Positions 32,446 to 53,476 of a stretch of 64,000 nt of DNA are shown in pieces. Position numbers and translations under genes: made by a program. This DNA is from Saccostrea cucullata. Lineage: Eukaryota. The stretch is from the NCBI RefSeq assembly GCF_032062105.1, contig NW_026928121.1, forward strand, positions 124,001 to 188,000, in the 5' to 3' direction. Within the stretch, counting starts at the first letter, position 1; the number at the start of each line of letters is the position of its first letter. The notes under the pieces were generated by a model. It did not search any database. It was given only the letters and a program-made list of their open reading frames with translations, and was not told the origin of the DNA.

Positions 32446-33259
32446 ATTTTTATGAAGAATGTTATTCGCTCTAATAGGAAATTGGGATTAGATGTTCCCA
32501 TTTTTATCATGTTTTAAGAATATGAATTCAGCATTCAACAAACGGTAAAACAAAAATGTATCATTTATATGAAAGCACACGTACGTTGTTTGCTTAAGTG
32601 GTTTTGGCCAAAATTAAACATCAAGTATTTATAACAGTTCAGAAAAGTTACAGTTTTGTGAATAGGAAACACGAGATATTCCTAATATATCATTATACAT
32701 GAATGCAAAAGAAAATTAACATGTCACTTCTTCCAGTTTCTTTTTACAAGTATGAGAATCTACAAAACTAGGGAAAATAAGAGAGATACATGTATATAAA
32801 TTATACTATCTAGCATTGATAAAATGTTACTAGGCTACTGCCCTTTGATATGTTAAATGCAATCAATTATTTCCATTTTTTAGTCAACGTGTTTATAAAC
32901 TTTCTTTCCATATTAGAGCGAATTCGGAGAACATGCATGTAATGTTGCGTGATGATCTTCAGTCGCCAAGATACATTTATAAGCAACGCAATTTGGAGAA
33001 AATACAATTTGTATAGCTAAATTTAATAAATATATTTGTTTGAGTGCGTCTCGATCAGGCAAGATAGCTGATTATCTGCTGGTATATTGTATTATCAAAG
33101 AGTAATGGATACAAGTGAGAGAAACTAGCTCGGGGTTACCAACATTATAGCGATCGACTTGAAGAGACATTAGACATCATGAACACTTTTCCATGGACGC
33201 TTTATTAAGCATTATTTAAAACAGTCCATTTTAATAACTTTCTGGAAAATGCTTGAATG

Positions 33260-33432
33260 CACAGTATTCAAGCTTAAAAGTCCATTAAAAATACAAAACT
33301 TACAGCAAAGGCAACACAGACCTCTAAAACATCAAGGTGGGATCAGGTGCCATGGAGGAGTGAGCAATCCCTGCCGACCGGTCACACCCACCTTGGGCTC
33401 CTTGTCATGAACGGGATACAACTGAAAAATCC
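33260..33432 (-). mobile_element. Solo PLE 3' module
   Basis: GGGATCAGGTGCCATGGAGGAG..GCA..CCCTG.CGACCGGTCACAC on the + strand. Confidence 0.75.
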
Positions 33433-34395
33433 TTGAAGTACATGTATAGTTATTAGTCAAAGGAATAAGATAACAACAAAAAACTGTGTAAAATCTTTAA
33501 TTATATACTGGAATAAATAATTTTTTAACATTGATCATAAGTGTTTGATACATAATTTGAGATAAAGTAATTGATATTTTATTCTTGTTTTTCTGTATAG
33601 TTGAAAATGAAATAATTGATTTTGATAAATACAGGTACTGTATACTGTAAACTGTCCATTTTGTGAAAGAAGGGACTAATCAAGGACTGTAGGCCAAAGA
33701 TTAGCTCTTTCTCCGACAGAGTGGACAGTTTGCGGCCTTTCTTCTACTTAAAACATGAATTCATTTATTCTGAAAATTTAAAAAAAAAAGTACAAAACAG
33801 GGAGCACACAAGCAATGAAAAGTTTATTGTCAACAGAATGGACAGTTACAGGTAAGCTTGTGGTGCACAGCAATTTGATGAATAACCGATTGCGTTTCCA
33901 GATGCAAATAACAAAAAGTCTTCTTCGAAAGAATGGACAGTAACTAGTGGATTTCTGGGGATGCTAGTATATACATGTACGATATTAGTATTTTGATATA
34001 TTTATAGATATGCTACACTTCAAAATCAGTTTATGCTTTGCTTTGCAAGGGTAAACATGTTTCCCACCGATATAGACGAAATCGCATTGAAACAAGAGGA
34101 TGCACAAAACCAGTTATAATTGGACCTGGAAACAGGGAATAGTGACACTAGAAGAAGATATTATTCAAACTTTGACCCCCCCCCCCCCTCCAAAAAAAAA
34201 ATCTTGAACAGATAAAAATAATTCGAATTAATGCTGGAAATATTTTATATGAATTTAATTTTTGAGGATATATTAATTGCAGCAGTGTAATGGTGAAATG
34301 CAAACTGTGTTCCAAGTGTTGGATAACCATGAGCCAAAGTGGAAATATTTCACTTTAACACAACCATTTCCCACGATAAATAAAGTCCAGGCTTT

Positions 34396-34995
34396 TTGTT
34401 TACTGGAATTCCCTTGGGCACCAACTGGGCCCCGTTAGTACCTGTAGCAGACCTATTTTTTTATTCTTATGAAGCAGAATTTGTCCAAAATCTTATGCGT
34501 GAAAAAAAGAAAACACTTGCTGTGGCCTTCATCTCGATATTAAGATATATCGACGACGTATTGTCAATTAACATTGGTAATTTCCATTCTTATGTCGATA
34601 CGAAAAATTCTGGTGAGCTTGAGATAAAAGTTACCATCGAATCTGACATATCTATTTAAACATTTTACTTGAAAAAGACATCAATGGTTATCTAACAACC
34701 AAGCTTTATGATAAACGTGAAGAGTTTAAACTTTTCAGTCGTCTACTTCCCTTACTTATGAAGCAATATACATGTACCTTCATTACCTACACACGGGGTT
34801 TATACATGCATTTCTTGGTTGAAAACTCAAGAGCATAAGCTACGTATGAACAATTTCTAAAGCGAGGTAAATTATTTACAAACAAATTGCTGAAACAAGA
34901 ATATCAACAGTCATCATTTCGTAAGTTCTATGGTCGGTACAATGACCTTGTCAGCGAGTAGAATTTATCATTATATTTAATTATGACTGACAGGC
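34396..34995 (+). mobile_element. Penelope-like RT fragment (pseudogenised)
   Basis: GIPLGTNWAP..ADLFFYSYEAEF...RYIDDVLSIN...ELEIK, then TKLYDKR and KFYGRYNDLV with frameshifts. Confidence 0.88.
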
Positions 34996-35072
34996 GTTTT
35001 TTTTTTTCATAAAGCTTTATTTTCAAGCTTATCGGTTAATTGCCCTTACGTATAATTTAGCTAAAAGGTTTA

Positions 35073-36259
35073 TTTTTAGCTCTACTGGTCAGAGACCAGA
35101 AGAGCTTATGCGATGGTAATGCGTCCGTCGTCCGTCCGTCCGTCTGTCTGTCTGTCTGTCTGTAAACAATTTTTCAAAATGCTACTCCTCCTACAGTTTT
35201 GGTCCGATTTCAATATAACCTGGCACAAAAGTAGACTACACCAAGATACATAATTTTGTGCATCGGTTTATGATTTCGAAGAATGGTGTTGCCGTGGTTA
35301 CTAAATATAGAAATTTCTGTGAAATTCTTTCGAAATGCTACTCCTCCCACAGTTTTGGTCCAATTTCAATATTACTTGGCACACAAGTAGACTACACTAA
35401 GATACATAATTCTGTGCATGGGTTTTTGATTTCGATTAACGGTGTTGCCGTGGTTACTAAAAATAAAAATTTCTGTTAAATTCTTTCTAAATGCTACTTC
35501 TCCTACAGTTTTGGTCTAATTTCAATATAACTTGGCACACAAGTAGACTACACTAAGATACATAATTCTGTGCATTGGTTTTCGCTTTCGATGAACGGTG
35601 TTGCCATGGTTACTAAAAATAGAAATTTCTGAGAAATTCTTTTAAAATGCTACTCCTCCTACAGTTTTGGTCCGATTACAATATAATTTGGCACACAAGT
35701 AGACTATACTAAGATACATAATTCTGTGCATTGGTTTTTAGCTCTACTAGTCAGAGACCAGAAGAGCTTATGCAATAGTAAGGTGTCTGTCGTCCGTCCG
35801 TCTTTCTGTCTGTCTGTCTGTCTGTAAACAATTTTTCAAAATGCTACTCCTCCTACAGTTTTGGTCCGATTTCAATGTAACTTGGCACACAAGTAGACTA
35901 CACTAAGACACATAATTCTGTGCATCGGTTTTTGATTTCGATGAATGGTGTTGCCGTGGTTACTGAAAATAGAATTTTCTGTGAAATTCCTTTAAAACAC
36001 TACTCCTTCTACAGTTTTGGTCTGATTTCAATTTAACTTGGCACACAAGTAGACTACACTAAGATACATTAAATAGTGCATCGGTTTTTGATTTTGATGA
36101 ATGGTGTTGCCATTAGTACTAAAAATAGAAATGTCCGTGAAATTCCTTTAAAACATCACTCCTTCTACAGTTTTGGTCTGATTGCAATGGCTTCTTTTCT
36201 TATCCTTTGTTATAAGTACAAACCAGTAGAGCTACAGTCTCGACAGAGACTTCTGGTTT
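35073..36259 (+). mobile_element. Young Helentron/HINE-type composite: two heads (35073, 35736), 156 bp arrays and one 3' end
   Basis: 12 bp subTIR AGCTCTACTGGT/ACCAGTAGAGCT; (GTCC)n(GTCT)n; unit starts at 35181, 35337, 35493, 35649; AGTCTC-GACA-GAGACT terminal hairpin. Confidence 0.88.
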
Positions 36260-36980
36260 GATTACATATTAACAAGAAAAATTGATATTGGTACATCTGT
36301 ACACACAGTTTTTCAAACAAAGCAAGCTATTGATAAAGAAGTTAATGCTGCAAGGATATTAACAGCCCTGTTAAATGTCAAAATTTGGCAAATTATATGA
36401 TTGACAGAAAGACAATTATAGGAAATATAATAAAACATAAAAAAAAACAATCTTCAGAATATTTCCACTGAATAGTTCTATTTTTCAATATATTTTTCCT
36501 TTCCTTAACGCTGGTAAAATACTTGATTATCAAACTTTTGATTTTCATACATTCAAAGCTGTAGGCCTTTTGTACGCCCTTTTTCTATTTTTATATACTT
36601 AAAGGAATTTTATGGTAAATTAAAGGTTAATAACTTAAAAGATTTCCCATTGCTTTACCTCTTGGATCTGTAATAGAAAGCACTTTCTACGCAATAACCG
36701 AAAAACTTAAGATCATTCAGTGCATTACGATAGTATCTATCATGCTCTAGAAAAGTGCAGATGAATATGAGGAGAACAGAAGAAATTTATATTAACCGAT
36801 TTAAATCAATAATTTTTATTGTGGTAACAACATCAAGGGGTTAATTATAAATCCTCGTTCTCACTATGGGGAAAATAAGTTAGTATAATAATGATGTGGT
36901 ACCAAAACAGTCACATCCTGTAACTCAAATGTTGAGCGATAACAACAATGCTGATTAAAGTTTCTGTCACCGTTTTATTA

Positions 36981-37260
36981 TTATACCCCCGGTTGAAAAA
37001 GGGTACATGTATATAGTAATCGGGATGTCCGTTTGCGGTCCCGTCTGTCTGTACGTACGTCCGTCTGATACGCTTTGGGTACATTTACCTATCACGTATC
37101 CGCAATTCCTCTTATATCACTTAATGAAATTCAATGAAACTTTCAAAGAATCTTTATTACATAATTCCATTGTGCACCTTCTATCTTACTTTGGTGTCTT
37201 GATCCGACACGATATTTACCATATATTTACTATATTTCCATTACACTATGTGCACATACA
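36981..37260 (+). mobile_element. DINE-1/HINE-like 5' fragment
   Basis: TTATACCCCCG head, ATCGGGATGTCCGT and (CGTC) microsatellite. Confidence 0.55.
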
Positions 37261-50846: not shown

Positions 50847-53476
50847 GTAAGTACAGCATAAACAATATGTTTTGGCACCATTACCTACATTGCATGACTA
50901 TCTGCTATTGTTGTACACATGAATTCTGTATGCTGCAAGCAGTATAAACAAGATATATAAGCCGATGTCTTCTACCTGTCCGTCAGATGTGGGTGATTGG
51001 AATCACCATCCCCTACCATTACACGTTGTAATGATGTCAATTACTTTAGGTACAAGATGAGGTGAAACAGGTTAATTCTTGTGCATTCCTCCAATATATT
51101 GACAAAACAATTGGTTATTCCAGGCCGGTTTTTTTCTTATATTGATTTTAAAAAGAGAGAAACTTGTTTAATTTTGTATGCCAGTTCGTGACACGCGACA
51201 GGTGAACTGGACCAGTCATATGCAATACTGCGTCTTCGCGATCGGTCGACGCAGCCTTAACTTCGTTCTGGCAAAGAGCTAAAAGCTTTTAGTATCGAAT
51301 TGACAAGCGCCGGAGACTTAAAACATCTGATCCCCCTGAGATCTATAATATTCTTATCATATTCAGAGCAGTCTTTCCGATTTGGGCTTTTTGCATTTTG
51401 TCGTCAGCATTTGAAGAGAACCATTCTAATTAGTCTTCTATACATTGGGTCTAATAAAATCATTCTGAGGTCTTTTATTACATTTTACCACAAAATATTT
51501 ATAAGAAAGTTAAGCGGATAAAACATAATCCTACTTTATGTTTCAGCTATATGTACATGAAAGCTAACTTCTTCATTCTGTAAAGGATTATTCATTCTAA
51601 TTGTCAGCTCAGAAACTCGTTCAAAATTGATTTTTGTGAGAGACTATTATTGTCACTTGTCTTACAGAAAATTAAATTCTAGAAAGAAATCGTTTATGAA
51701 GTGAACCACATGCAGGTGATTACATTGTTTATTGCATAACCTATAAGATGAAATAAACAAGAAAAAAATATCACATTAATTGCAAAAAAAAGTTTATTTC
51801 ATTTTCGTGCTTACATTAGAATGAACGTTCGTGGGTTGCTTTTCATTTTAATTAACTATTATCAGCCGTAAAGATACCACCCATATATTACTGCAAGATT
51901 ACAAAAGCACAAAAAAAAGAAAAGGATTATTATATCTGAGGCACTTGGTGTATGGAGGCAGTTCGATTCATTTTCAAGATTCTCTTATACTCGAAAGAGC
52001 ACGCTGGTAAGAAAGTTAATATTAGAGACGGCCTGTTTAACGATTAGCATCCGACTTTGGCGTCGTTAGATTGTTCTTCAATGGATGGTGTTCACCGTTT
52101 CAGAGAAAAACAAACAAAGAATGAAGAATCAGAATATACATTATTAATTTTGCCGATATTGGATAAGTAATTCTCAGCAAAAACAAATAAAAAAAAGACC
52201 TACATCCTCGGTGCTTTGTATTAAGTCGATTGGTCGGCAGAATCCGCAGGCATATTTCTATTTTCTCCGTCTTAAAACATTGATGGTTATCTACAAGATA
52301 ATCCTGTATATCTCTAATATTTTTAAAATAGAAATTGAGTTCTAAAAACAGACACGGTATGTGCAGTGCAGTAAATGGGGTGGGATATTAGATTCGAATT
52401 CAACAATAAAGTTTGTGGGGTATTTACTTTAGACAGTGTATTGTTTTGAAATTCATTGTTTAATATATATTTAGAAAGTCAGATTTGAGTTTTATGCTTT
52501 TTTTCTAACAGCGTCTAGATCTTTTCTTTTTTTCAAATAAAATTTCATTCGACTCCATTCCAATTACATGCACACCGCACTTGTACCTATATGATTTTTA
52601 TGCAATACCTGTTTTTTTCCGCAAGAATTCTTCATAACAAAAAGAAAAGTGCGCTGTATGATAATTTCACAGTCAATTAAAGACTAGATAATGTTCATGA
52701 GACGGTCACAATGTATTGAACAGTCATTGATTAATTAATGATATCCATATCAATAGACATACTTAATCAGGCAATGCGGCAATTTATTATTCATAAATAT
52801 ATTGGTATTTTTAGAGCCGGTTCTGACCTTTCGATCCCGGTCTTGCATCACAGACTGCATGTGTGTTCATTAAGGCTCAGGATAATTGAATGCCGTGTCT
52901 ATTTATAGCATCTGAAACATATGGTTTGCGTCGGGGAGTTTACCTTGAAAAATGTTCACAATCTGCAGCTAGTTAGGGGTATACAAAATGTGATGTACTA
53001 GATGCAATAGAATCTTATAATAAGGGGGTCAGCAGTCATTATTTTCGATAAGCTGGAGTACATATTGTTCATTACTTGTGTGATTAAAAGGATTTTTTTA
53101 CATGAAATATTACATATATTTTTTTATAACATTATTTAATTCATGTATTAATATTTAGATATACCATTTTTTAAATATATAAGACTTGTGAAAATCCTAG
53201 GAAGAAAAAATATGTCAAGTCGAAAATATTTCTAGGAAACATTTAGTCTTTGATGAACAATGGTGGTAGTAATTCTTTGTGCATCATTCTAATCCCAATT
53301 TGATCACTATATGTGTGGAAATTTAAATAAGACCACTATCTAATCAATTTCTTCTTTAATTATTTAAAAAGATACGAAAATTAAGAATACTGTTAAACGA
53401 ACCCCCTAACAAAAGTTTTACTTTCAATAACAATTTTGACTACACTGATTTATCTTATCTACATACAATGTACATA

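Follow-up and report, generated by a model that had tools for sequence, protein, structure and literature searches.

CATGTA at TA dinucleotides in Saccostrea cucullata: a recurrent six-base gain that very probably records excision of Tc1-type transposons

The window analysed here is a stretch of 64,000 nucleotides from Saccostrea cucullata (contig NW_026928121.1, positions 124,001 to 188,000). It contains a decayed retroelement copy in which the letters CATGTA follow a TA dinucleotide (scar 1, the focal site; Table 1). The resulting word, TACATGTA, lies within a decayed RT fragment, is in frame with the retroelement ORF and adds His-Val to it. By inspection the insert brings no stop in any frame and reads as His-Val, Tyr-Met or Thr-Cys. 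An earlier note on this DNA had placed CATGTA in the copy at 34761 and none in the paralog at 41021, and both window sequences bear this out: the paralog (~41022-41040) has the same flanks as scar 1 without the hexamer. The window also includes a large exon of a Shal (Kv4) potassium channel at 49681-50850, with Shal-type, BTB_2 and Ion_trans domains and devoid of TACATGTA, and short, near-perfect, TA-bounded inverted repeats at 38809-38923 and 27060-27167.

Table 1. Scars, host repeats and resident elements (positions are those of the window)
Feature	Position	Strand	Description
Scar 1 (focal)	34769..34776	.	TACATGTA; target TA 34769-34770, gained CATGTA 34771-34776
Scar 2 (probable, mutated)	34803..34810	.	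TACATGCA; TA + CATGCA, net +6 against the family
Scar 3	34439..34446	.	TACCTGTA; TA + CCTGTA, one mismatch from CATGTA
Host copy	34380..34995	+	Decayed Penelope-like retroelement (likely Naiad-type), 3′ fragment; approximate boundaries
Paralog fragment, same retroelement	40445..41420	+	Empty site, TA 41028-41029; boundaries approximate
Scar in another interspersed repeat	41878..41885	.	+6 against its family
TACATGTA near end of HINE-like repeat	37004..37011	.	A scar only if ~5 bp were also lost alongside
Elements resident at the focal TA			L139-141 (three near-identical contigs, counted once), L142, L152, L100, L138

The host repeat is a Penelope-like retroelement, likely of the Naiad type. 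Its 619-aa frame finishes past the RT thumb, has a CxC-like motif ahead of the RT and lacks a C-terminal endonuclease, and Pfam RVT_1 gives a weak match to it (E 0.0017, below the cut-off). Naiad elements, as described in passages of Craig et al. 2021 (PMC8557442), likewise combine a C-terminal RT with an upstream CxC-like motif and lack a C-terminal endonuclease. They also have an N-terminal GIY-YIG, which is unseen in the host repeat because the copy extended is 5′-truncated and the sequence reached does not include that part.

Three scars, one of them probable, are found in this single 0.6-kb retroelement copy. The second, which had been proposed as a mutated scar some 30 nt further on, stands as probable: the fixed anchors around it are 18 nt apart against the family's 12, and the net gain of six requires three nearby substitutions. 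The third is absent from the earlier note; 67 of 78 spanning homologs are shorter there by 6 nt. Two further cases had been put forward in other interspersed repeats, presumably HINE elements as they were then labelled. The one at 41878 holds, the inter-anchor length being 6 nt in 30 of 38 repeat-unit matches and 12 in the window unit. The one at 37004 is ambiguous: its 11 closest homologs are only 0-1 nt shorter overall (one, L234, has an insert of its own), so that a 6-bp gain would require a compensating deletion of ~5 bp.

Throughout the window TACATGTA occurs 24 times, against a shuffle mean of 1.36 and a maximum of 4, and most of these copies lie outside this retroelement. For 19 of the 24, the 1.1 Mb of sequence compared holds no spanning homolog. 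The unique DNA of the window occurs only once in the assembly, and among the matches listed for window 32500-39000 in public contigs, which are partial, there is no 6-bp scar difference. Thirteen of the 24 copies fall inside 12.7 kb, at 32787-45391 (scan p=0.006), possibly through local hopping; across 30 other stretches of ~10 kb the dispersion of TACATGTA is 1.26, near Poisson.

Comparison of family sites confirms the hexamer as a gain of 6 bp at a TA, because the 26-nt empty site has 3,784 exact matches genome-wide and the version with CATGTA has 41, ~1% of exact family sites. The earlier reading of the event as a gain is thus sustained, with carriers that are polyphyletic, and the opposite case that it named, a family consensus containing the hexamer with deletions in the other copies, fails on the same counts. 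The gain sits at a TA and closes with a second TA, the form of a footprint. When inserts of 1-22 nt are allowed, the focal site yields 180 matches, of which 100 were listed and counted by hand. Six-base gains number at least 42 in the matches listed: 25 exact CATGTA, 5 one mismatch off, 5 of CTAGTA type, 4 CCGGTA and 3 others, so the sibling palindromes CTAG and CCGG are also found at the focal site. Gains of 8 bp between two TATA are seen there as well, and TACCGGTA nearly always adjoins another TA (14 and 14 in a 308-kb sample).

At other positions in the family, the 141 kb covered by 259 aligned segments contain 39 six-base inserts against 23 five-base and 9 seven-base inserts, after removal of 67 focal-site and 46 reference-specific inserts. 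Ten of the 39 are exact CATGTA at ten different TAs and 13 lie within one mismatch of it. CATGTA is the sole 6-mer that recurs at different positions in this set. The prediction that it would dominate 6-bp inserts therefore holds in part: it is the commonest, and at the focal site accounts for 25 of the 42 gains in the matches listed, but elsewhere (10 of 39) it has no majority.

Phylogeny indicates that the six extra letters arose many separate times at the focal TA. The tree comprises both window copies, 30 of the 41 carriers and, as empty copies, the first 30 by contig order; the search pattern was masked. For its 31 carriers and 31 empty copies, 14 label changes are required. A single clade of carriers is rejected (p-AU 9.2e-5), and therefore the gain recurred. 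One carrier differs by 1.8% from a copy that belongs to the youngest subfamily and is empty. Carriers are older, with a median of 10% from the column majority versus 5% for empty copies (p=7e-4), and the carrier label is somewhat clustered on the tree (as low in 1 of 500 shuffles). Two carrier pairs, 0.9% and 5.3% apart, are common in origin. None of the 12 strongest allele differences places an allele enriched in carriers within 100 bp of the focal TA, and this speaks against conversion tracts. At the same site, a +2 (CA) variant tracks one retroelement subfamily (L093, L098, L099, L103, L108, L109, L112, L115, L117) and so was inherited, unlike CATGTA.

The focal TA is found empty in some copies, with a scar in others and, in a third state, occupied by elements that have TA on either side and CA...TG ends. 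Two patterns were used to look for occupied copies: the site with CA plus one more base after it (43 of 71 matches examined) and TG-TA ahead of the right flank (18 matches, all examined). Five separate inverted-repeat elements were found, each with CA...TG ends and TA on both sides, measuring 3,452 bp (in three near-identical contigs), 1,886 bp, 3,231 bp, ~1,190 bp and 1,320 bp (L138). CATGTA directly adjoins the ~1,190-bp element. L138 contains pieces of HTH_SB, HTH_Tnp_Tc3_2 and DDE_3 and is a Tc1 transposon. A family sampled as six copies at different loci is 92.6% identical to it; these copies are 99.6-100% alike and have an open 357-aa DD34E frame. In the other four elements 42 frames gave no Pfam match, so their superfamily is unproven. 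The ratio of scars to resident elements at the focal site is ~10:1, a rough figure since the search patterns differ and several long inserts are excluded. Two other contigs (L145, L146) have at the focal TA a 4,468-bp insert without inverted repeat that ends in a second retroelement left flank; in L150 and L156 the focal site holds a CAGG-ended inverted-repeat element of 3.35 kb, flanked on the right by something other than a plain TA.

DDE_3 was matched in all 150 candidates scored, of 1,183. From 50 DDE_3 loci examined, 29 distinct TA-flanked insertions could be resolved, 20 of which start with CA and nine with TA. The D..E spacing is 34 at 16 of 20 loci, and the genome contains a cognate DD34E transposase with HTH domains, and at least five young CA-ended families have open transposase frames. 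The inner letters of the scar are the termini of the resident TA-flanked elements (CA...TG). Very young intact DD34E families (L254-L273), with frames of 357, 349, 370 and ~420 aa and copies 99.3-100% alike, suggest current Tc1 activity. A separate Tc1 group (L163-L166, L171, L172, L184, L266) has TACT after the TA at its ends; the scar expected from it, TATATATA, is 4.5-fold enriched.

The flanks of scars and of Tc1 insertions have A at -3 and T at +3 in common. A at -3 is found in 80% of 40 Tc1 half-sites and 56% of 208 scar half-sites; over all TA the background is 36% (Fisher p 3e-8 and 7e-9). The focal site and the flank data agree with the A at -3 pattern of the Tc1 target consensus, given as CAYATATRTG in a passage of PMC9635669. 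The commonest Tc1 half-site is ATG-TA (10 of 40), which is contained in every scar. Stacked cases in which a Tc1 adjoins a full scar (L170, L181) are also found, as are double scars.

CATGTA is very probably a recurrent scar left by excision of Tc1-type cut-and-paste transposons. This reading is the most likely because a Tc1 still occupies the very site in another copy and the assembly has ~360,000 TACATGTA. An element with CA...TG ends, such as those observed there, would insert at a preferred TA and duplicate it. The transposase would later excise the element and, by analogy with C. elegans Tc1, leave each flank with a 3′ overhang made of two terminal bases of the element. End joining that retains and fills both overhangs would produce TA-CA-TG-TA. 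Passages of PMC4490562 describe non-complementary 2-nt 3′ overhangs at Tc1 excision, and in PMC3878927 the footprint is described as the repaired overhangs plus the duplicated TA, made by end joining. Excision, if it takes place in the germ line, would leave scars that are inherited and so accumulate with age, as is observed. Re-insertion at scars is probable because each offers ATG-TA, the commonest half-site of the resident Tc1s; a few stacked cases point the same way. Contributions probably come from several DD34E families as well as from their non-autonomous partners, and the CTAG and CCGG forms would derive from elements that end differently. The connection between element and scar is drawn comparatively, across paralogs.

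It is improbable that footprints of this type came mostly from another TA-targeting group, such as pogo-like or unclassified 2-bp-duplication elements, and not from DD34E Tc1. Four of the five resident elements are CAG- or CAC-ended and without a Pfam match, and pogo-type transposases lay outside the search; however, a true Tc1 occupies the focal site, at least five young CA-ended families have open transposase frames, and the scar flanks agree with Tc1 flanks. Still less credible is an origin of TACATGTA through slippage or template switching, or under selection as a binding site for a protein such as MYB or an Irx-type homeodomain. The word is reported in passages of PMC3520976 as a preferred Irx site and a Phytophthora promoter motif, and it appears in the abstract of a MYB paper (PMC11134190). 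Selection offers no route to a 6-bp insertion, though, and the gains are in dead retroelement copies, at TA and with transposon-like flanks, while slippage or template switching would find neither CATG nor TACA to copy in the empty site. It is possible that some scars were later co-opted. Least tenable of all is the spread of one insertion among copies by descent or short-tract gene conversion, which would fit the two close carrier pairs and the subfamily-tracking +2 variant but is largely refuted by the rejection of a single clade, and is further opposed by the lack of a linked carrier-enriched allele, by the ten CATGTA gains at ten other positions and by the 24 copies in the window, most of them outside this repeat.

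Scars of the kind attributed here to Tc1 excision would be abundant. In the 1.17-Gb assembly TACATGTA is counted 362,932 times, ~1 per 3.2 kb; a reversed control word is also frequent (125,227), and together with the near-duplicate contigs this makes the genome-wide count an upper figure. In the 308-kb sample TACATGTA is 9.1-fold over a second-order Markov expectation and is the top 8-mer after a C run. TACCGGTA and TACTAGTA, the sibling CCGG and CTAG palindromes, are enriched 6.8-fold and 4.7-fold, and TACAGTA, a footprint of the 5-bp type, is not enriched (1.1-fold). Scaling of the sample expectations gives an excess of at most ~300,000 TACATGTA, since near-duplicate contigs in the assembly can inflate it.

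Scars build up with the age of the retroelement copy: in bins of rising divergence their density is 0.23, 0.62, 2.08 and 2.58 per 10 kb, a trend drawn from 15 scars (1, 3, 8 and 3). Against 14,122 substitutions this amounts to ~1 scar per 1,000. Near-identical contig pairs totalling 193 kb have 61 scars in both members and one that is clearly one-sided, so that at least some gains would be recent. Affine realignment of these pairs gives seven six-base indels, with one clear and one possible CATGTA. Such pairs (e.g., C19203/C11821) are 98-99.9% identical with many 1-bp indels and are probably redundant contigs. Transversions exceed transitions in them, so much of the difference may be assembly error, and the pairs do not date the process.

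The footprint mechanism is known; its scale and uniformity here are unusual. The C. elegans Tc1 footprint taCATGta shares with the present scar its sequence, TA target, CA...TG ends, DD34E transposase and A at -3 with T at +3 (passages of PMC3520976 and PMC4490562). In C. elegans, however, taCATGta is called rare in PMC3520976, citing Eide and Anderson 1988, and the germ line yields a great variety of Tc1 footprints (26 kinds in 103) according to PMC4490562, whereas here the same form is the leading product, inherited and present at ~1 per 3.2 kb. A single dominant product would thus need a different repair balance. Sleeping Beauty and Frog Prince leave C(A/T)GTA, according to passages of PMC3878927, which resembles the scar described here in combining overhang letters with the duplicated TA through end-joining repair, as supposed here; theirs is a 5-bp gain from 3-nt overhangs, whereas here 6 bp are gained and the 5-bp type is a minority. 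Passages of PMC1636448, PMC3509143 and PMC520745 bear only on primers and the known Sleeping Beauty footprint. Motif-1 of Phytophthora is the same abundant palindrome, TACATGTA. Its authors, in passages of PMC3520976, take it for a transcription-factor site and, given its abundance, dismiss the idea of a footprint, whereas here abundance and insertion origin coincide. In the literature searched, with subscription papers mostly outside the scope, no animal was reported to have TACATGTA scars genome-wide. What is added here is a three-state site together with a young intact Tc1 family.

Taken as a whole, the evidence leans towards a joint reading in which ~300,000 uniform Tc1 scars would form a germ-line transposition odometer invisible to repeat annotation, advancing ~1 per 1,000 substitutions and ~10 per resident element at the sampled site. 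The germ line would join the breaks cleanly, not by polymerase theta as in worms, each scar would seed insertions, and the same origin may underlie TACATGTA 'regulatory motifs' of other eukaryotes. Because scars log the transposition events of departed elements, past activity at the sampled site would be about ten times what resident copies alone suggest. A single dominant product would imply that germ-line repair follows a route different from the one in C. elegans and testable in natural variation. Since the frame is kept and no stop is added, the insert could add two residues to proteins. An abundance of TACATGTA in motif searches need not mean a transcription-factor site, and the young intact Tc1 families provide a direct handle for an excision assay.
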